DNA of 33,293 bases. It comes from Deltaproteobacteria bacterium (GTDB lineage: Bacteria > Myxococcota > JACRCW01). Under the pieces are notes generated by a model. The model was not told where the DNA came from and ran no database searches. It was given only the letters and a program-made list of their open reading frames with translations. The DNA lies in contig JACRCW010000088.1 of NCBI GenBank assembly GCA_016218805.1, forward strand, positions 1-33,293. The letters are read 5' to 3'. Positions 1-33,293 of the stretch are shown here, one piece after another. The translations under genes were made by a program, and so were the position numbers. The first letter of the stretch is position 1; each line of letters opens with the position of its first letter.

Positions 1-406
1 ACGCTGCGGAGGTGGGGCGGGCGTGTGGAACGCAGGCGTTCGCGTGAACCGGGCAATGCGTTGTTGGGCGGCGGCTTGTTTCAGGCCCGGAAGCGGTGCT
101 GGGTCGGCCGGGCGCGAGGACCCTTCCGCGGCGTCGCAGGAAACGGACGCGGAGCGACTTCGCCCACGCTGCGGAGGTGGGGCGGGCGTGTGGAACGCAG
201 GCGTGCGCGTGAACCGGGTAATGCGTTGTAGGGCGGGGGCTTGTCCCCCGCCCGGATGAGTTGCTGGGTCGGCCGTGCGCGAGGACCCTTCCGCGGCGTC
301 GCTGGAAACGGACGCGGAGCGACCTCGCCCACGCTGCGGAGGTGGGGCGGGTTTGTAGAACGCAGGCGTTCGCGTGAACCGGGCGGGGGACGAGCCCCCG
401 CCCTAC
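1..406. repeat. 165-bp tandem repeat (about 2.3 copies, truncated by window start) carrying GTAG-type REP palindromes
   Basis: ACGCTGCGGAGGTGGGGCGG recurs at 1, 166 and 331. REP GTAGGGCGGGGGCTTGTCCCCCGCCC at 228-253 (+), near-identical inverted copy at 381-406, degenerate copy at ~63-88. Confidence 0.85.
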
Positions 407-432
407 GACGACCGGTCGGGCGGCCCACGCGC

Positions 433-2892
433 TCAATGCTGCAGCTCCTCGATCTTCTTCGAATACACGGGATTCGGACTGAGCGAATACGCCTGTTGCA
501 GGATGAGCACCGCCAGGCGCGCATTCCCACGCGCAGCGGCGAGCCGTGCCGCGGCGAGCGCGGGGCGCGGGTCCTTCGGGTTGGCGCGCGCCGCGTCACG
601 GTAGGCGCGGATGGCGGCATCCGTGTTGCCACTGCTCTCCTCAAGCTGCGCCTCGCCCATCATGACCTCCAGCATTGGCTTGCTTTCCGCCGCCAGCGCG
701 TTCTGCAGGCGTCCCAGCGCCGCGAGCGCTTCTTCCCGCGCGCCACGCGCCAGCGCGTTCTTGAACGCCGCGCGCTGGATGTCCGCATCACCGCTGCGCT
801 CTGACGCCCGGCGCAGCAGCGGCGCAGCCTGGTCCGCCTTCCCGTTGGCCTCCAGCGCCGCAGCAAGCACGTACATGCTGCGCGGGTCCTCCGGGGCCAG
901 TTCCAGCGCACGCTGCGCAAGGGACTCCGCCTCCCAGGGATCATCCAACAGGTGGAGCGTGAGGTCCGCCAGCAAGCGTTGCAGAGCGGGGTCCGCCGGG
1001 TTGTCCCGCCGCACCTGCGCCACGCAGCGCGTGGCCATGCCTGCCTCCTGGCCGCGCCACAACTCCTGGCACACCCACGTGTTCTCCCTGCCGAACACAG
1101 CCCGCAGCTGCTCCACGGACGCCCCCCGCCGCCGCAGTTCACCGAGGATGCGCGCGCGTGGGGCTTCGTGCGCGCGTGCGGCGTGGCCGTACTCAATGAG
1201 CGCCTGGTCGGTACGGTCCAAGTCCCACAGCGCCGCAGCCGCGTCGAGGTGTCCTTCAACGTAGTGCGGGCGCAGGAACATGGCGCGGTTGATCCACGCA
1301 AGGCGGCGGGCCCCGTCCTCCGGTTGGGTCGCGTGGAGAATGCGCGCCAGCGCCAACGCGGCCACGTAGTCGGTCCTGTGGCCTCGGAGATGTTCCTCCA
1401 GCGCAGCCACACGTTCGGGAAGGGGCCGGGCCAGGGCGCGGGCGCGGGATGGCTCGGTGGCCGCGCGCACGGACGCCAGCGCGGGCAGCGAGACAACCAG
1501 CGCAACCGCCACGCCACCGACCATGGCGGCGGTGGAACTGGTGTGCGAGCGCTGCCGCGGCCGGCGCTGCGGGAGGGTGGCACCGGCGGCGGCCACCAAC
1601 GCCAGGAACGGCAACGCAATTCCCAGCAATTCCAGATTGAAGTCAATCTGGTTATGCAGAAATGTGGCCAGCACCGCGACGAGGCATACCCGTTCCAGGA
1701 GGCCGTGGTTCCGCCGCAATTGCCGCAGCACGGGGTAGGCAAAAGCGGCCATATAGAGCAGCGCGAACGGCAGGCCCCACTCCACGGCGAGCAGCACTTC
1801 AATGTTCTCCGGCCCGACGACGGTGAGATTGACGTCAACGGTCATGTGCCGCGGGAACACCTGCGAGAATGCGCCGCGTCCCATGCCGGTCAGCCAGTAG
1901 AACTCCAGCGGGCGGACCGACTGCGCCATCAGCGCGACCTTTCCGCCCAATGCGTGATGCATGGCCGCGGCGAGGCGCGTGAAATCCAGCGCGGCCACCA
2001 CCGCCGCGATGCCCGCGGCGGCCACGAGCGCGGCGAACGGCGAGAGCGGGATGGCGCGCGGGTTGTCCTGGCGGCGACGCAGGTTCCACGCCATCACCGC
2101 GGGCCACGACACCAGCGCGATCCCGACCAGCCCGGCGACCAGCGCAACGTTTCCGCCGTGGGACTGGTTCTTGGGGATGCGCACCGCACAGGCAAGGGCC
2201 ACGGCGAGCCAGGCCGCGCGCACGCGCAGCGTCCGCGCGTGCAGGACCAGCGCGACCGACACGAGGATCCCCAGGTTCATGAACGCGACCGCGTGGTTGG
2301 GGTTCACGAACGGCGCGACATAGGGCGGCCAGTACGGCGTGGTGACGACGTCCAGCAGGCGCTTCCAACCGAACACGTACTGCGCGACGCCGGCGAGCAC
2401 GCCGACCGCGGCGGACAGTCCGACGAGCGAGACCAGCCACGGCCGGTTGCGTTCCTGCCGCGCGAGGTCGTTGCATACGGTGAGGAACGCGGCGCACGTG
2501 AGCAACTGCCCCGCGGCCACCAGCGTGGACAGCGGCTCCACGCTGATGGCGCCCCAGGCGGCGGTGCCATCCCACGTCATGAACTCGTGGAGTTCGGCGG
2601 CCTGCGGAGAGAGCAGGCGCAGGAGCCCCATGGGCAGGGGGACCGCCTGCAGAATGGACCACAGCGCACCCGCGGCGAGCACCCACGGCAACTGCCCCGG
2701 CACGACGCGGCGGCCCTGCCGGCGGCGCGCGTACCCGTGCACGGCGAGGGTGATTCCGACCAGGACGGCGCAGGCGGCTTGCGCTGGCGGGTGCACGCTG
2801 CCGACCGCGAGTGGCGCGCCGATGATGACCGTAGCGAGCAGCGCCCAGGTGGCGCGTGCGGGTGCGGTGAGAGTCGACGGGGGCGGTGGCAT
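433..2892 (-). CDS. O-antigen ligase-like (Wzy_C) polytopic membrane protein with C-terminal TPR repeats
   Basis: Many TM segments with FVNPNH, TGMGRGAF..ENxxxxxxxEWG and HNQIDFNL motifs, then TPR-like helices (ALELAPEDP, AYRDAARANPKDP). ATG 2892 chosen as start; ORF is open to 3003. Confidence 0.8.
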   Translation of the reverse strand: MPPPPSTLTAPARATWALLATVIIGAPLAVGSVHPPAQAACAVLVGITLAVHGYARRRQGRRVVPGQLPWVLAAGALWSILQAVPLPMGLLRLLSPQAAELHEFMTWDGTAAWGAISVEPLSTLVAAGQLLTCAAFLTVCNDLARQERNRPWLVSLVGLSAAVGVLAGVAQYVFGWKRLLDVVTTPYWPPYVAPFVNPNHAVAFMNLGILVSVALVLHARTLRVRAAWLAVALACAVRIPKNQSHGGNVALVAGLVGIALVSWPAVMAWNLRRRQDNPRAIPLSPFAALVAAAGIAAVVAALDFTRLAAAMHHALGGKVALMAQSVRPLEFYWLTGMGRGAFSQVFPRHMTVDVNLTVVGPENIEVLLAVEWGLPFALLYMAAFAYPVLRQLRRNHGLLERVCLVAVLATFLHNQIDFNLELLGIALPFLALVAAAGATLPQRRPRQRSHTSSTAAMVGGVAVALVVSLPALASVRAATEPSRARALARPLPERVAALEEHLRGHRTDYVAALALARILHATQPEDGARRLAWINRAMFLRPHYVEGHLDAAAALWDLDRTDQALIEYGHAARAHEAPRARILGELRRRGASVEQLRAVFGRENTWVCQELWRGQEAGMATRCVAQVRRDNPADPALQRLLADLTLHLLDDPWEAESLAQRALELAPEDPRSMYVLAAALEANGKADQAAPLLRRASERSGDADIQRAAFKNALARGAREEALAALGRLQNALAAESKPMLEVMMGEAQLEESSGNTDAAIRAYRDAARANPKDPRPALAAARLAAARGNARLAVLILQQAYSLSPNPVYSKKIEELQH

Positions 2893-24952: not shown

Positions 24953-26908
24953 TCACCGCGCGTTCGCACCCCGGCACGTCTGCAGGTGCAGCCGCGCCGC
25001 CTCGTAGCCCGGCTGCAGCGCCAGGGTGCGCTCAAACACCGGCGCCGCCTCATCACACCGGCCCAGCGTCATCAGCGCGTGGCCCAGGTTGAAGGTGGCC
25101 TGCACGTGCCGGGGCTGCGCCGCCAGGAACCGCCGGTACACCGCCACAGCGTCCTCCAGCTTCCCTGTCATCTGCAGCGCAAAGCCGCGGAGGAAGCCCG
25201 CGTCCGCGTAGCCGGGCGCCACCTGCTCCAGCCGCTCCAGGAACACCAGGGACCCGGCGTAGTCCCCCGCCACCTGCAACTCGCGCGCGGCGCGGTGCTG
25301 ATAGGTCGCGTTGCGGCCGTCCAACTCCGCCGCGCGGCGCGCTTCGGCCGCTGCTTCACGCGTGCGCCCCAGCTCCGAGAGGGTCACCGCGTACCAGTAA
25401 CGCGTCTGCGCCCCGCCCGGGTCACGCCCCACCGCCGTGCGCAACAGCGCCAGCCCCTCCTCCACCTCCCCCTGCGCCACGCGCGCGCGGCCCAGGTTCA
25501 CCTCCACCAGGATGTACCCCGGCGCCATCTCCAGCGCCTTTTCCAGCAGCGCGCGCCGCTCTGCCAGGTCCGCCGTGGCCATGCCCAGGTTCAGGTGCGC
25601 CAGCGGGCCGCCGCCGTGCAGCACGCTGTACCGCCACAGTGACGCCTCGGAGCGCCACGTTGTGTTCAAGTACACCGAGCACCCCGCCCACCACACCAAC
25701 GCCGCCGCCGCCACCGCGCCCGCGCGCCGGCCGCTGCGCACCCGCGCCAGGCCCAGCCCCAACAGCAGGAACAGGAACGGGCTGGATGGATAGGGCCGGT
25801 AATCCACCGCCAGGTGGTGCAGCGGCAGCACGCCGGAGGTGGGGAACATGGGGATCCAGTAGGCCAGCACCAGGAACGCCACCGGCGGGGCGCGCCGGGA
25901 CAGCGCCACCGCCAGGCCAATGCTCCCCAGGATGAACAGCCCGCCGGCCAGCACGCCCGGCTCCAGCAGGCTCGTCGCCGGCGGCACCTGCGGGTCCTGC
26001 CGGATGGGGAGGGGCCAGGCGAAGTTCGGCAGGTAGTGGAACAGGTGCAGCCGCGCCTGGGTGAACGCGTAGCTCCACCGCTCTCCCCTGCCGGCCATGA
26101 CGGTGGAGAAGTCAGAAAATCCCAGCACGTACTTCTCAAACGCGAAGAACGCCCCCACCACCCCCGCCGACGGGAGCGCCCAGGCCCACGTGCGCGGGCG
26201 GAGCCAGCCGCCGCCCCCCAGCGTGGCTTCAAAGACCACAATGAGCGCCGGCGCCACCACGCCGTCCGTCTTGGAGAGCAGCGCCAGCGCCAGCAACCCC
26301 AACGCCGCCGCCCAACGCCCCGCCGTGGTCCCCATGCGCCGCATGCGCACGTGCGCCAGCAGGCACGCCCCCAGAAACACCTGCATCAGCGCCTGGTCAC
26401 GCGCGCAGATGTAATTCACCAGGATTCCTGACACCGGGTGCACCGCAAAGGCCAGCGCCGCGCCCAGCGCCACCACCCGCGGGTGCGCGGGCGTGAAGCG
26501 CCCGCACCAGAACAGCAACAGCTCCAGCAGCAGCAGGTAGACCACGTACGCCGCCACCCCGTGCAGCAGCATGTTGCCCAGGTGGTAGCCGGGCAGGCTG
26601 TCCCCGGCGATGGCGTAGTTCACCGACAGACTCAGCGGCAGCAGCGGGCGGTAGGCCGCGATTCGCTCCAGCGTGGACATGGTCCGCGGGTCCGTGAAGT
26701 GCACCCACGGCCGGCTGAACTGCTGAATCCCCGGGTTGTCCTTCACCCGGTAGAAGTCATCCAGGTGGAAGCCGTTCCACAGCGTGTTGGCAAACACCGC
26801 CCCCACCACCAGCGCCAACAACCCCGCCGCCACGTGCGCCGGGCGGTGCTCCCACCACCACCGCGCCCGGCTCAGCACCGCTTTCTCGTCGGGCGCAACG
26901 CTCGCCAT
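24953..26908 (-). CDS. TMTC-like GT-C glycosyltransferase with C-terminal TPR repeats
   Basis: TM1 followed by FHLDD, YRPL, YHLGNMLLH, FAVHP, LLSK, DYRPYP, WRSEASLW, then multiple TPRs. Confidence 0.85.
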   Translation of the reverse strand: MASVAPDEKAVLSRARWWWEHRPAHVAAGLLALVVGAVFANTLWNGFHLDDFYRVKDNPGIQQFSRPWVHFTDPRTMSTLERIAAYRPLLPLSLSVNYAIAGDSLPGYHLGNMLLHGVAAYVVYLLLLELLLFWCGRFTPAHPRVVALGAALAFAVHPVSGILVNYICARDQALMQVFLGACLLAHVRMRRMGTTAGRWAAALGLLALALLSKTDGVVAPALIVVFEATLGGGGWLRPRTWAWALPSAGVVGAFFAFEKYVLGFSDFSTVMAGRGERWSYAFTQARLHLFHYLPNFAWPLPIRQDPQVPPATSLLEPGVLAGGLFILGSIGLAVALSRRAPPVAFLVLAYWIPMFPTSGVLPLHHLAVDYRPYPSSPFLFLLLGLGLARVRSGRRAGAVAAAALVWWAGCSVYLNTTWRSEASLWRYSVLHGGGPLAHLNLGMATADLAERRALLEKALEMAPGYILVEVNLGRARVAQGEVEEGLALLRTAVGRDPGGAQTRYWYAVTLSELGRTREAAAEARRAAELDGRNATYQHRAARELQVAGDYAGSLVFLERLEQVAPGYADAGFLRGFALQMTGKLEDAVAVYRRFLAAQPRHVQATFNLGHALMTLGRCDEAAPVFERTLALQPGYEAARLHLQTCRGANAR

Positions 26909-27183
26909 GCCTCTTCACCCGGGTACCGCGCCAGCGCGGCAGCGGCGCGGCACGGATACCGGGCCGCTCGTCTGCGCTGCAACGGACCCGCCCTGTCTGC
27001 AGGCCCCACCCCGTGCACCGCGCTCGTCGCCGGGAACGCGCAATCCGTTCGGCGGGCGGGGCCAGGACTTTCCGTCGCTGGGAGTGTTGAGGGCAACCTG
27101 AAGGGCGTGTTAGCGCGGCCACGGATGGGGCGCGGGAATGTCGCTCCGCCCGTGGAGGCAACGTGTCGACGAAGCACTGGACG

Positions 27184-30100
27184 ATGAAGCGGTCTCACCT
27201 GGTTGCGGCGCTGGCGTTGGCTGTGGGGTCGCTGGCGGGTTGCGGCGGTCCTCCGGGCCGTGACGGTGACCCGGGCCAAGCAGGACCCAGCGGAGAGGTG
27301 GGCCCAACCGGCGACACCGGGCCGCGCGGACCGCGCGGTGACACGGGCGATCCCGGCCCCACCGGCGCTCCCGGCCCCGCGGGCAGCACCGGCGCCACCG
27401 GGGACACCGGCGCCACCGGAGACACCGGCCCCAGCGGCCCCACCGGGGACACCGGCCCCCAGGGCCCAACGGGCCCCACCGGGGACACCGGCCCCCAAGG
27501 CCCGCGCGGCAACACCGGCCCCCAGGGCCCCGCCGGCCCCCAGGGCCCCGCCGGCAGCACCGGCCCGCTGGACACCGAGCTCGGCCCCTACGAAGACCTG
27601 CCCGGCGTCGCCGTCACCATCACCACCATCACCGGCGCCACCCGGTCAGACGGCAACTTCCAGGCGGGGGACACGCTGGCGGTCACCTTCTCCATTGCCA
27701 CGCAGGACGGCGCCGCCATCCCGCTGAGCGAGGTTGACAGCGCCGCCATCTGGGTGGCCGGGCCAACCAACCACTACCAGCGCGTCATCCCCTCGGCGCG
27801 TGATGCGTTCTCCCTCAGCGACGTGAAAACGCTGGCCGCCAGCAACGGCAACGGCACCTACACGTACACGTTTGCCGCCCCGCTGCCGGCCACCTACGGC
27901 TCACCGCTGTTTGACACCACCAAGTTCACCCAGGGCGAACTCACCGGCCAGACCCTGGAAGCGGGGACCTACAGCGTGTCGCTGCGCCTGTACAAGAACT
28001 ACTCGGTGGAGGGGACCACCTACCGCGACGTGGGCTACGACGTGGGGTACTTCCTCCTTGGCGCGGCCACGGTCCTGGACCCGCGCGCGGTGGTGACGGA
28101 CAACAACTGCAACCAGTGCCACGTGCGGGTGCAGGCCCACGGCGGCAGCTACCGCAGCGTGAATCTGTGCGTCACCTGCCACACCGCCGGCGCGGAAGAC
28201 CGCAACAGCACGGACACCGGTGACGCCACCCCGCAGACCATTGAGTTTGGCGTGATGATCCACAAGATCCACAACGGCGAGCACCTGCCCTCCGTCAACG
28301 GCATCACCGTCGACGCCACGGGCAACCTGGTCTACGGCACCGGTACGCCGTACGCCGTGGGCGGCAACGTTGCCACGGACTACTCCAACGTGGCCTTCCC
28401 CGTCTGGCCCAACCTCAACATCGCCATGCCCAGGGACCAGGGCTATTCCGCCCTCACCCCCGCCGCCAAGGCCGCCGAAGACCGCGTGCGCACCGGCGTC
28501 ACCGCCTGCGCCAAGTGCCACGGTGACCCTGACGGCGCCACCGGGCCCATGCCCGCCCCGGCCCAGGGTGACAACGCCTACACCGCCGCCTCCCGCCGCG
28601 CGTGCGGCTCCTGCCATGACGACGTCAACTGGGACCGCACCTACCGCGCCAACGGCCTGTCCATGGGCGCGCAGAGCGGTGAGACCTCCTGCCTGATGTG
28701 CCACAGCGACTCCCTCTACGGCTCCGTGCAGACCGTGCACCGCCACCCGCTGGAGGACCCGGCCATCAACAAGGGCGCCAGGTTCAACCTCACCGCCGTC
28801 ACCGGCGGGACGGGCGGCGGCGGCAACTTCCAGGCGGGGGATCCCGTGCTGCTCGCCTTCACCATCCAGGATGACGCCGGCGCTGACCTGCCCATCGGCG
28901 CCATGGACGCCGCCAGCGCGCTGATTGTCGGTCCCACCACCAACTACAACGCCGTGCTGCCCTATCCCTCCGCCAACGGGCTGGCCATCAACCCGTTTGA
29001 TTTCAGCGGGCGGCTGGTCTCCAGCTCCACCAACGGCAAGGGCGCCATGAGCAAGGTGCTGCCCGCCTCCATCACCGCATCCGAACCCCTGGAGGTCCGC
29101 TTCTCCTCCTCCACCGCCTTTGACGTCACCGGCCGGCTCTCCGGCGCGCTGGGCAGCGGCACCCTGGCCACCGCCGCCAGCACCAACCCGGCGGGATCCT
29201 CCGTCTCCGCGCTGGCGCTGTCCGCCGCCACCGCCGCCGGCACCTGGTCCATTGAGTTCACCAGCGCCACGGCGTTCACCGTCAAGAACCCGTCCGGCAC
29301 CGCGGTGGGTGCCGGGGGAACCCTGCCCGCCGCCACCGCGGCGTCCACGCGGTTTGCCAATGCCGCCATATCCTTCAATCTCAGCGTTGGCACCACCGCG
29401 TTTGCCACCGGCAACACCGTGTTTGTCACCGTGTTCAAGGGCGGCGCCGCCAACGCGGTGGTGTTTGGCATCATCCACGGCCGCACGGCGTTTGCTGCCA
29501 ATGACCGCTTCTACCAGGAGGTGGTGGCGCCGGCCGCCAGCTACACCGTCAACCTCCCCATGGACCTGGCCTTGGAACTGCTGGGCCGCGGTGACGGCAC
29601 CGTGGGCCAGCAACTCACCGCCGCCAACCTCCCCGTCTACTGGGGCCGCCAGCTGGTTTGGGAGCGCACCGCCCTCACCGGCACCGCCACCGCCCTCACC
29701 GCCCCAAGCGCGTTCCTGGACCGCTACATGGACGTGGCCGCCGTGGATGCCGGGCTTGCCAGTGGGGACTTTGTCGTTGTGGACAACGGCGGCACCGGCA
29801 CGGAAGAGTACGTGCAGGTTGGCCTGGTGGAGAACACCGCCAGCCTCAAGCGCGTGTGGTTCCGCACACCGCTGCGCTACGCGCACGCCGTCGGCACGGC
29901 GTTCCAGGAGGCCACCTTCACGCTGCGCCTGGAAGGCACGGATTACACGTTGGATGACACCAACGGACGCATCACTTCCGCCGGCACCGGCTTTGGCAGC
30001 GGCAACCCGGTGATCATGAGCTACCGCACCCATGGCCGGTTCGGCTGGCGCCGCCACGGTGGAGACACCGTGCAGGCGGTCTACGCGGCGCCGCCCAATG

Positions 30101-30849
30101 ACTCCCCGGACCTGGGCGAATCCGCCGGCGAATGGGCGGGCAGGTCCTACGTGGACGGGACGTACACGGTGGGCCTGTGGGCCGCGCCGAATATCGACGT
30201 GGCCCTGTTTGGCGAGCTGCAGACCTACCGCGGCACCTCCGAACCGGCCACGCGGGACGTCCTGTACGGCGGCGCCACCACCGTGGCCCCGTACGGCTTC
30301 ATCTCGGGCGCGGGGAATACCTGCTATTCCTGCCACAATGACCTGTATTTCCACGGCGGCGGCCGCCACGGATTCAACACCTGCATCCTGTGCCACGGCA
30401 TTGCCGGCGGCGAGGACTGGGCGCGCTACAGCCCCAATACGGCCTATACCGTGGGCGCCACGCCCGGCGTGACCATTGATTTCCGCACCATGCTGCACAA
30501 GATCCACAAGGGTAAGGAACTGGCCAACGCGGCAACCTACCAGGTCAACGGCTTCTCCAGCGCAGCCAGCTACGCTGAGGTGGTGTTCCCCGCCTGGCCC
30601 GACGGCACCAAGAACTGCACCACCTGCCATGGCACCAGCACCGCCTGGGAGTACCCCAGCGCGCCCGCGCACCCGGACCAGACCACGGACCCCACGCCGG
30701 CCAGGTTTGTGTGCGGCGCGTGCCATGACTCCACCGCGGCGCAGGCGCACATTGACAGCAACACCAGCCCCGCCGGCCAGGAGTCCTGCGCCGTCTGCCA
30801 CGGCCAGGGCCGCGACAAGAACGTGAAGCTGGCCCACAAGGTCCGCTGA
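27184..30849 (+). CDS. Collagen-stalked decaheme c-type cytochrome lipoprotein (OmcA/MtrC-like)
   Basis: Lipobox LAGC; 36 Gly-X-Y triplets; ten CxxCH in two groups of five; MIHKIH/MLHKIH motifs; [10 protein letters not shown] domain I strand. Confidence 0.92.
27247..27570 (+). repeat. Collagen-like (Gly-X-Y)36 repeat
   Basis: Uninterrupted from GPP GRD GDP to GST GPL. Confidence 0.95.
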
Positions 30850-31390: not shown

Positions 31391-32767
31391 CTATGGCTGT
31401 AGGGCCGTCTGGCTGAACGTCCACCACCGGATTTCTCCTCGAAGGACCGCGAAGAGGCGGACATTGTCCATGGCCATGAGGCGCGGGTCACGGGGCACCT
31501 GGCTTTCCGGGATTGGAATCTCGCGCACGGTTGCTTGGTCCACGTTCACCCAAAACACTCTCCGGTCGGCACGGCGGACAACAAGATGGTCCAATGAGGC
31601 AAAGAGCGTGAGATGGGTGCCCACACCCGCGGCGGTGCCCGCAGACTCGGGCAGCTTGATGCGGCGCTCCTCCGACCAGCCGGCCTCGGCAAGTCGGAGC
31701 ACGAGGAGGGCCCGACCCGCGACGACGATGCGAGAGCGTGAAAAGACAATGTCCGAAGGAGTGTCTGGCAACCTGATGGACTGCGCGACCCGAAACGCCC
31801 CGGATTCACGCCGATAGACGTCCAAGTGATAGGCACCGCCGTGATGCTCTGTGGTCAGCACCAGCGTCGAGCCATCCGGTGAAAGCGAGAGCCCCCACCA
31901 AAGATCGCTCGCGGTTGGGGCAAAGGGAAGCTGCGTCCCGTGCCAGCGACCTGCCTCCTTTTGAAACTGGAGAAGAGCAGAACTGGCCTCGTCGAGCGGC
32001 TCGTTCCTGATGTCCGACCCCGGATTGGCGAGGGTGAACAGTTGGCCACCACGAAGGATGACCGGTTTCCCGTATCCGGACTCGAAACCGCGGGCTCCGC
32101 TCTCGCGCCACGGCGGAATCACCTCCACACGTGACCAGCGTCCCTCCGCCTCCTCAAGGACGAGAAGCGAGCAATTCCAGTGCTCGCCGAGCCGCCCCAC
32201 CGCCAGGCGCGTACCACCCGCGGATGCGTCGAGCGCCAACTCCGGCGCATAGTCGACGTCACCATCCTGGTCCGTATGCACTGGAATGCGGGTGGTCCAG
32301 TGGATGGCTCCCGCCCCGAGAACGCCCGCCCACACGTACGGCGTCCGCGATTCGCCCTGGTGCCCTCCAACGAGGATCCGAATTCCTTCAACGGCAATGG
32401 ACGTAATCTCGAAGCCCGGCGGACCGTTGGCGCGGCCTGGTTCTCCCAACACAATGGGCGGCTCCGCCTGTGTGCTCGGGGACCCCTGCCCGGGCTGCGG
32501 CGCGGGTCCGGCGCTGGGGGCGGGATTGCTCGGATGGTCGGACATGGGTCCCTTTGGCAGCTGGGCAGGTTGCGGATTGCCGGGGCACGCCGCGAGCAAC
32601 AGCGCAGGGAGTGTGACCACCCGCAGGAGCCTCGCGAGTTCGTTCGTCGCTGTTGATGATACCGCTCCGGTGTCGTCACGCTCGCGGGAATGTGAGAACC
32701 GCAACACAAACGTATTGGAATGCTGTAGGGGGTGAGCAGGTGCCCTTCGGAACGCACCATCCGGCAT
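31391..32767 (-). CDS. Hypothetical protein, possible lipoprotein with a beta-rich (propeller-like) domain; start uncertain
   Basis: ORF open to 32920; LLLAAC lipobox-like segment (~32585-32602), Pro-rich linker, strand-rich repeats (LSLSPDGSTLVL); codon usage less GC3-biased than its neighbours. Confidence 0.55.
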   Translation of the reverse strand: MPDGAFRRAPAHPLQHSNTFVLRFSHSRERDDTGAVSSTATNELARLLRVVTLPALLLAACPGNPQPAQLPKGPMSDHPSNPAPSAGPAPQPGQGSPSTQAEPPIVLGEPGRANGPPGFEITSIAVEGIRILVGGHQGESRTPYVWAGVLGAGAIHWTTRIPVHTDQDGDVDYAPELALDASAGGTRLAVGRLGEHWNCSLLVLEEAEGRWSRVEVIPPWRESGARGFESGYGKPVILRGGQLFTLANPGSDIRNEPLDEASSALLQFQKEAGRWHGTQLPFAPTASDLWWGLSLSPDGSTLVLTTEHHGGAYHLDVYRRESGAFRVAQSIRLPDTPSDIVFSRSRIVVAGRALLVLRLAEAGWSEERRIKLPESAGTAAGVGTHLTLFASLDHLVVRRADRRVFWVNVDQATVREIPIPESQVPRDPRLMAMDNVRLFAVLRGEIRWWTFSQTALQP

Positions 32768-33293
32768 GTCCTGGGCCTCACAGGAGGGCCTCCAGATTCG
32801 ACTCCTCACGCCGTAGACTGTGCCCCGCGCGGCGGCTTCCGGCAACCGGCTCCCCCGGCTGGTCTTCGGTAGGCTGCAAGGTGCCAGGCGGATGCCGGAG
32901 GCCGCCGTGAGGGAACGCAACGAGCTCCGTGCAGCAGGTGGCTGTCGCCGTCAGGGACGGACCCTGCCGTGGTGCGCCCGGAGTGACCAAACCGCATGAT
33001 GCGGTGCGGCGGCGGAACCGCTCCAGGGAGCACGCCACGGGGCGTGTGGTTGAACCCAGCACCGCACCCGTGCGGACGCGGCTGGGGCGCATGCTTGGCT
33101 TCTCACGGCTGAATGGGCAGCTTGCCGCTTGATTGCACCGACCCCGGGAAATAAATGGCTCTCCTGCACTCCGAGTGGGTCTGATTGCATTGAATTCACC
33201 AGCGTTTCGTTGGCTGTGGCGGGCAAGACCCACCGGGCTTGACATAGGCAGCGCGATGACGGCCTCGACGCCCGTACTCCGGGCAGCGGCGCT

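Follow-up and report, generated by a model that had tools for sequence, protein, structure and literature searches.

The gene at 27163 to 30849 (forward strand) of contig JACRCW010000088.1 from a Deltaproteobacteria bacterium of the Myxococcota (assembly GCA_016218805.1) encodes a decahaem c-type cytochrome of the OmcA/MtrC kind. Two neighbouring loops of its domain III each carry a small beta domain with another beta domain nested inside it: unit A2 inside its paralogue A1, written A1[A2], and barrel D inside domain C, written C[D]. Sequence comparison shows that these inserted domains are related by descent to decorating domains of phage virions. On balance, and with moderate confidence, we favour the reading that the surface cytochrome, which stands alone, uses them as a rigid head for contact or docking. 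The window analysed here is the whole contig of 33,293 nt; the host genome has 6.43 Mb and is 92% complete. No published description of the domain III insert was found in the full-text literature, a scope that leaves most subscription papers outside.

A decahaem cytochrome of the OmcA/MtrC kind

The open reading frame (ORF) contains ten CxxCH motifs in two pentahaem domains (5+5), one beta domain preceding each. It was called from a GTG at 27163, while the ATG at 27184 is the likelier start. The TIGR03507 model (OmcA/MtrC decahaem) scored 228.6 bits, above its curated cut-off of 209.3, and PF22113 matched twice, in domains II and IV. A basic and then hydrophobic stretch precedes the motif LAGC, which fits the lipobox consensus, with Cys27 as predicted lipid anchor. 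A lipobox-like pattern was present in 102 of the 123 full-length relatives described below. The features, with approximate boundaries for the insert domains, were as follows:

27163 to 30849, + strand: OmcA/MtrC-family decahaem c-type cytochrome gene, 1228 amino acids (aa) from GTG (TIGR03507, whole-protein model)
27184 to 27243, + strand: lipoprotein-type signal peptide upstream of 27244, ending in LAGC (aa 24-27), with Cys27 as predicted lipid anchor (sequence)
27244 to 27576, + strand: collagen-like stalk of 37 Gly-X-Y triplets (PF01391)
27592 to 28104, + strand: domain I beta domain, aa ~144-314 (model, fold comparison)
28105 to 28764, + strand: domain II, haems 1-5 (PF22113)
28765 to 28995, + strand: domain III core, N-terminal part, aa ~535-611 (HHalign to domain I, prob 100)
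28996 to 29526, + strand: insert 1, outer unit A1, aa ~612-674 and ~760-788, FlgK/FlgL-like small beta domain (fold and hidden Markov model)
29185 to 29439, + strand: insert 1, inner unit A2, aa ~675-759, A1 paralogue in an A1 loop (HHalign, alignment)
29527 to 29559, + strand: domain III core strand separating both inserts, aa ~789-799 (aligned to the domain I YTYTF strand)
29560 to 30036, + strand: insert 2, outer domain C, aa ~800-833 and ~921-958, phage baseplate/neck/XD-like small beta domain (fold)
29662 to 29922, + strand: insert 2, inner barrel D, aa ~834-920, tail-tip/tail-tube/tailspike "rider"-like beta barrel (fold)
30037 to 30315, + strand: domain III core, C-terminal part, aa ~959-1051 (HHalign to domain I)
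30316 to 30846, + strand: domain IV, haems 6-10 (PF22113)

The model of aa 140-1228 reached pLDDT 93.3 and pTM 0.90. Its best match among the Shewanella cytochromes was OmcA (4LMH; Z 22.0, root-mean-square deviation (rmsd) 4.6, alignment of 579 out of 694 residues, spanning model 7..1089, Foldseek E 3e-16), followed by UndA (3UCP, Z 18.7), MtrC (4LM8 and 6QYC, Z 16.5-17.8) and MtrF (3PMQ, Z 15.1). Since the alignment with OmcA covers the full span of the model, the four-domain MtrC core is predicted to be intact despite the inserts. Haems are absent from the predicted model, and their arrangement in a staggered cross is presumed only.

The 5+5 CxxCH pattern, the four-domain fold and the lipoprotein-type N terminus are thus common to this protein and to OmcA, MtrC, MtrF and the undecahaem UndA of Shewanella. 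As with OmcA and UndA, no shared operon with a porin is needed (PMC11492766). The differences from the Shewanella cytochromes are the four nested beta domains, which add about 340 residues to domain III, the 37-triplet stalk, which is the longest among the 123 relatives, and the lack of mtrAB alongside. A disulfide of the CX8-15C type in domain III is kept by the Shewanella clades and gates flavin binding (PMC4486940). In the query the stretch from haem 5 to haem 6 is devoid of cysteine, so this Shewanella-type disulfide is absent and the protein falls outside that narrow clade; the same region was free of cysteine in 53 of the 123 relatives.

Two insertions flank one strand of domain III

Haem 5 (aa 510) and haem 6 (aa 1054) are 544 aa apart, in agreement with the roughly 540 aa given in a preliminary description of the sequence, and the units quoted there were located at 29092, 29248, 29368, 29752, 29869, 29932 and 30010. 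The opening motif GNFQAGD occurs at 27652 and 28822, and the closing motifs are GTYSVSL at 27964 and GTYTVGL at 30157. They bracket 104 aa in domain I compared with 445 aa in domain III. The large excess in domain III is therefore real, and at about 341 aa it is slightly smaller than the 350-400 residues first estimated. With the insert left out, the domain III core aligned to domain I with HHalign prob 100 and E 2e-40. Domains I and III of the query are recognisable sequence paralogues, unlike those of the Shewanella cytochromes.

The domain III strand at aa ~789-799 aligned with the YTYTF strand of domain I and is kept in relatives without unit A. Domain III therefore holds two separate inserts in neighbouring loops, one on each side of one core strand. 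The preliminary description had seen one large nested insertion; the nesting held, but the insertion is divided. Likewise, its "two similar units" proved to be paralogues (A1 vs A2, HHalign prob 99.0, E 3e-18) that are not in tandem, the second lying inside the first. A is unrelated to C or D, and C to D (HHalign prob <=17.5).

The insert model (aa 600-965, from an alignment of 97 sequences) was all-beta, with pLDDT 94.5 and pTM 0.90, and consisted of discrete domains rather than of an ordinary enlarged MtrC domain III. The N and C termini of the units are adjacent, which favours domain insertion. Conserved DFxGR and DRFY motifs were found at the junction of A1 and the core, and conserved EEY and RYxH motifs in barrel D. 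A1 and A2 contain 23-28% Ser+Thr. None of A1, A2, C and D has a haem motif. His908 was considered as an extra haem ligand and rejected, since 7 of 8 phage-type rows, which are free of haem, have it too.

The missing cysteines bear on a structural or shielding role, in which the inserts would lend stability to domain III or shield the cleft that the disulfide controls in Shewanella, limiting access to the haems for acceptors such as flavins and oxygen, with no specific partner. The contrast with the Shewanella CX8-15C disulfide (PMC4486940) agrees with such a role. So do the pTM of 0.90 for the whole model, which suggests fixed packing, the conserved motifs at the A1/core junction, and the rider barrel of K1 lyase, which raises thermal stability (PMC8822698). 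However, four successive additions kept family-wide seem more than stabilisation needs, and decahaems lacking any insert are frequent in the host phylum (all 20 of the distant relatives fetched). We consider this explanation unlikely.

Folds of the inserted domains

Folds were compared against 48,161 chains, where Z values below 8 may reflect a common arrangement; unit A was modelled only within the larger insert and whole-protein models. A1 matched FlgK 4ut1 with Z 8.2 (rmsd 2.7, 84 aligned, model 13..189). Unit A further matched FlgK 9GO6 and FlgL 5ZIZ (Z 7.7 each) and the N-terminal domain of Wzc (PF23607, Z 6.3). The fold of A2 is supported by its paralogy with A1 and by a match to 5zj0 (Z 6.2 over model 492..618). 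FlgK (4UT1, 9GO6), FlgL and Wzc have the unit A fold in common with the query at 12-22% identity, and the helical polymerising domains of FlgK and FlgL are absent from the query.

Barrel D was closest to the Chi tail tip 8vjh (Z 11.4, rmsd 2.1, 82 aligned), followed by the Mystique tail tube 9n71 (Z 11.3), K1 lyase 7w1c (10.8), and the JBD30 baseplate 8rk3 (10.7); a further comparison gave the LKA1 tailspike (10.7) and GH110 (8.5). Domain C matched the baseplate of a Streptomyces contractile injection system (CIS), 9gtp (Z 9.2, rmsd 1.4, 79 aligned, 27% identity), the R4C baseplate 8gtc (Z 8.5) and the DT57C neck 8hqo (Z 8.2), as well as residues 187-250 and 265-332 of CBA120 TSP4, the XD2/XD3 domains (Z 6.8 and 6.5, rmsd ~2.0). 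The folds of C and D are thus common to phage tail, baseplate and tailspike proteins (8VJH, 9N71, 7W1C, 8RK3, 9GTP, 7RFV, 7REJ) and to a host protein that is a cytochrome, not a virion protein. Searches of the insert with Foldseek gave seven BFVD matches with low TM-scores, not used as support; the best ESM Atlas scores, 0.85 and 0.81, are leads only. Antibody Fab matches were discarded as weak or compositional.

Phage and flagellar relatives of these modules sit in trimers, rings and filaments, and a collagen triple helix requires three chains. The modules and the stalk might therefore join copies of the cytochrome into trimers, chains or a surface lattice. The 37 triplets of the query fit such oligomerisation or polymerisation, and XD-type domains are described as trimer modules (PMC8825819). 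On the other hand, 114 of the 123 relatives have only 0-9 collagen triplets, yet keep the inserts; other haem proteins of the host genome have long stalks without inserts; and in head-decoration proteins unit A is present only optionally, outside the conserved core. A homotrimer prediction of the insert scored 0.00 and is evidence neither way. We regard this role as improbable.

Sequence homology to phage proteins

The preliminary description had likened the insert to domains of phage head-decoration, tail-sheath and tail-tube proteins and of flagellar hook-junction proteins, and this likeness is backed by sequence homology as well as by the folds. An exhaustive phmmer search across 1.84 billion representatives gave 78 matches, mostly cytochromes or cytochrome-like pieces. 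Seven were identified as other proteins, namely two head-decoration proteins and five members of one virion-module family.

The two head-decoration proteins (PF02924; E 1.2e-4 and 3.9e-4) match through unit A. Profiles of A1 and A2 built solely from cytochromes matched 51 of 54 viral loci, which had been fetched with one head-decoration protein as query, and no reversed ORF. Twelve carrier ORFs were scanned, with six assigned to PF02924, three to cement proteins, one to tail sheath and two to no family; one PF02924 carrier lies between genes for an S49 protease and major capsid protein E (viral locus L017). A mixed unit-A profile of 9 cytochrome and 29 viral units found 456 proteins, and the best 120 of these comprised 114 with PF02924, one with a sheath domain and five without a domain. 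Of those 120 proteins, 113 reached at least 20 bits with the cytochrome-only A2 profile, and of 1200 shuffles none did. The mixed profile also reached FlgL in the PDB at E 2.4e-4.

Unit A is therefore a homologue of a domain inserted in phage proteins for head decoration, cement and tail sheath. It occurs among lambda gpD-type head-decoration (PF02924, phrog_49), cement (PF22758) and tail-sheath proteins, with the common pattern GNGT..FT.AT.F.V..G..FT...G.TAF..GD.F, as an optional insert outside the conserved core. Only this insert is held in common with the query. The gpD core is absent, as no PF02924 or phrog_49 match was found in the whole protein or in the insert. In the query the unit is nested in its own copy, whereas the head-decoration protein P0143 has two separate copies. 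Across phage decoration proteins the unit is widespread, has no Pfam model of its own and occurs in one to several copies (loci L029, L017, L046, L065; P0183-P0301).

The five virion-module matches belong to a family of 417-443 aa (best E 8e-14), for which three viral loci were found. In the annotated one, L073, the gene sits between a capsid gene and genes for neck, tail-tube and tape-measure proteins. The C[D] cassette of the uncharacterised 443-aa siphophage protein P0110 showed 32% identity over 134 aa with matching boundaries, and appears to interrupt an Fn3-like domain (weak PF00041 match). The siphophage genes for C[D] proteins lie at L071:3271-4599, L072:6001-6816 and L073:4992-6320.

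A tblastn search of A2 against annotated phage genomes gave no match, and a C[D] search among longer proteins returned cytochromes in 48 of 48 matches and missed the known phage family. Phage tail-fibre matches of the whole protein were discarded because all begin in the collagen stretch. A weak UmuD match (NCBIfam E 0.046, PDB E 0.7) was discarded as weak or compositional.

Distribution and conservation of the inserts

When aa 605-965 were used as query, all 79 matches were multihaem cytochromes (8000 candidates of similar length scored). Insert-based searches gathered 123 full-length relatives, and the presence of C and D in all of them is expected from this selection. The named relatives belonged to Planctomycetota or Myxococcota, and 9 of 13 GTDB loci were titled Planctomycetota bacterium. 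By the gap between haems 5 and 6, 16 relatives had ~360 aa and no unit A, 10 had ~470 aa and one unit A, and 96 had ~550 aa, with two A units scored in 94 of these and one in 2. The remaining relative (P0093) had a 730-aa gap with ~150 further residues inside A1. Another relative, P0003 (1629 aa), has in place of the lipoprotein start a repetitive N-terminal region of ~550 aa without a Pfam match. No RNA data set was listed as containing the gene. Contigs of four groundwater runs, all from one study, matched pieces of it; none spans it, and one of these runs may be its source.

Domains I and II were also searched, independently of the insert, in 401 genomes of the host phylum. Forty-eight genomes matched, including the host, with a sharp gap in E values: 11 genes in 10 other genomes had E<1e-70 and the remainder E>1e-25. 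C[D] was present in 10 of the 10 full-length close relatives, the eleventh gene being cut by a contig end, and in none of the 20 distant decahaems fetched, whose haem 5-6 gaps were 170-244 aa. Mean identity to the query was 0.45-0.56 for the inserts and 0.45-0.54 for the core, so the inserts are no less conserved than the core.

These results bear on whether the inserts might be neutral passengers in tolerant loops, kept for folding, or phage decoys or masks. The promiscuity of the units (head decoration, cement, sheath, FlgL, Wzc), their adjacent termini, which favour insertion, and the variable copy number of A (0, 1 or 2) agree with this. However, C[D] was retained in all ten close relatives found independently of the insert, is conserved like the haem domains, and showed no clean secondary loss among the relatives. 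We think this explanation quite improbable.

A link to anammox bacteria is not claimed. Loci L010 and L013 are titled Ca. Kuenenia stuttgartiensis and Brocadiaceae, but have 64% and 60% GC; this is higher than is usual for anammox bacteria, and the labels may be wrong.

Order of gain of the cassettes

Trees were built on core columns only, with insert columns removed, and rooted on insert-less decahaems, an outgroup with a long branch. FastTree was run on 105 rows kept from 148 after removal of near-duplicates, and IQ-TREE (quick, LG+G4) on a 48-row subset. Both agreed that the C[D]-only proteins form a basal grade and the A-bearing proteins one clade (98/99), which splits into single-A (100) and double-A (97) groups. 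The core trees need three changes, the minimum. This topology supports a stepwise gain of the cassettes, C[D] before A, within a single lineage of cytochromes, followed by inheritance.

In an unrooted cassette tree the phage cassettes formed one side of a branch (95) whose attachment to the C[D]-only grade is unresolved. They were about 28% identical to every cytochrome class. The sharing of cassettes between phages and cytochromes is thus old, and the trees give no direction. Recent acquisition was rejected on this even identity and on the host-like GC content at third codon positions (GC3) of the inserts (0.85-0.90 vs 0.89-0.94 in the core). As promiscuous surface domains, the units turn up in flagellar proteins, Wzc and glycosidases too. 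The "grafted" modules of the preliminary description thus stand as discrete domains within a cytochrome for extracellular electron transfer (EET), while a graft from phage would be just one possible direction. A bolder version would have direct phage capture in successive events (C[D], A, A into itself), giving a docking head that clamps the haem wire to a partner cell, cytochrome or matrix polymer and makes it partner-selective without an MtrAB operon; we hold this to be doubtful.

A putative contact head

In the reading that we favour, a lipid-anchored OmcA-like decahaem cytochrome would carry electrons along ten haems at the cell surface, a location and activity assigned here from its family. 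Two neighbouring domain III loops have each taken up a mobile beta-domain cassette, and the inserts would form a rigid, non-conducting head that keeps the haem wire in contact with something outside the cytochrome. Candidate partners are another surface protein or cytochrome, a matrix polysaccharide or a particle.

A docking role is suggested by three analogies. XD2/XD3 domains bind partner proteins (PMC8825819). The rider barrel of K1 lyase makes contact with polysaccharide and with the subunit next to it, and it adds stability to the trimer (PMC8822698). OetF of syntrophic sulfate reducers shares the theme of a putative contact domain, in that case fibronectin, on an EET cytochrome (PMC10553843); it differs in cytochrome family and in domain types, and its domains are not nested in an MtrC barrel. 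The preliminary description had proposed adhesion or polymerisation modules: adhesion or docking is plausible by these analogies only, and polymerisation is unsupported by any result.

Several points weigh against this reading. A shared fold reveals no function, and the docking partner or ligand remains putative. The XD2/XD3 match of domain C is middling (Z 6.5-6.8), with stronger matches to the CIS and R4C baseplates. The same folds occur in non-adhesive proteins (EF-Tu-type and ATP-synthase barrels at Z ~6, Wzc at 6.3, GH110 at 8.5). The insert had no Pfam or PHROG family match, the PHROGs comparison having been proposed in the preliminary description. The structural search proposed there gave the phage and flagellar matches by Z score, but Foldseek against the PDB returned nothing for the insert at E<=0.001. 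A cassette-only tree nests the single-A proteins within the double-A group, which speaks against a simple one-then-two order of A. Finally, the window has no porin or periplasmic-cytochrome neighbour.

Genomic context

No other multihaem ORF was found on the 33-kb contig, and neither mtrA nor mtrB lies beside the gene. Flanking ORFs that were scanned were TPR or lipase-like or had no family match, and a promoter and terminator scan gave results at chance level. The divergent neighbour (24953-26908, - strand) encodes a 651-aa membrane protein with C-terminal TPRs (only TPR families in Pfam), which by eye resembles TMTC-like glycosyltransferases. Together with the Ser+Thr richness of A1 and A2, this TPR membrane protein makes glycosylation a weak lead. 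The downstream ORF (31391-32920, - strand; 509 aa) has a GC3 of 0.73, vs 0.81-0.93 for most called genes, and gave no match in family scans.

No MtrB match to PF11854 or TIGR03509 was found in the host genome, with the TIGR03509 control silent and the genome 92% complete. GspD of type II secretion is present, which would be compatible with surface exposure. In eight haem-motif ORFs of the host genome a lipobox-like cysteine is followed by a collagen-like stalk of 33-50 triplets, namely in the window gene and in ORFs on contigs C16, C40, C62, C90, C101, C110 and C154. The stalk is thus a genome-wide trait of host cytochromes and is not tied to the insert. Further MtrC-like genes were found at C154:32452-35835 and C16:32076-35117 and on C62, C40 and C151, none with A, C or D; some have an unusual haem spacing, such as the one on C154 (22,34,237,22,86,23,26,340,31). 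On contigs C36, C54, C89 and C165 (L151-L155), four cytochromes have 30-33 CxxCH motifs, and two more have 14 and 19. The 30-haem gene of C89 is followed by a 743-aa ORF without a Pfam match, a possible non-Mtr conduit.

The loci of relatives (L001-L013, L120, L122, L124) were orphans or lay near Qrc/Act-like, DsrOP/NrfD-like, Rieske/cytochrome b, multihaem and occasional porin genes. Weak porin matches were seen in L007 and L122. In L007 two decahaems stand in tandem ahead of flagellar rod genes.

Implications

How surface cytochromes find and hold an acceptor or partner is an open question, and none of the solved structures of MtrC and OmcA is known to include a domain dedicated to contact. 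The family offers a natural series on one scaffold (no insert, C[D], C[D]+A, C[D]+A[A]) that makes deletions directly comparable. Phage virions and a respiratory protein clearly share domains here, and one of these domains sits inside a copy of itself. Two domain III loops tolerate grafts of 160-180 residues, which is useful for engineering cytochrome-material interfaces.

In the available portions of earlier work, the MtrCAB survey PMC8805035 does not contain the terms "domain III", "Planctomyc-" or "Myxococc-", and PMC11475568 and PMC11492766 hold nothing on this insert; the supplement of the latter lists 57 MtrC-like sequences (Fig. S4), possibly including family members. The MtrC survey PMC12133095 left out proteins that carry extra domains, as well as any genome lacking a complete MtrCAB. 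For this reason EET inventories of Planctomycetota and Myxococcota probably give too low a count for this branch of surface cytochromes.

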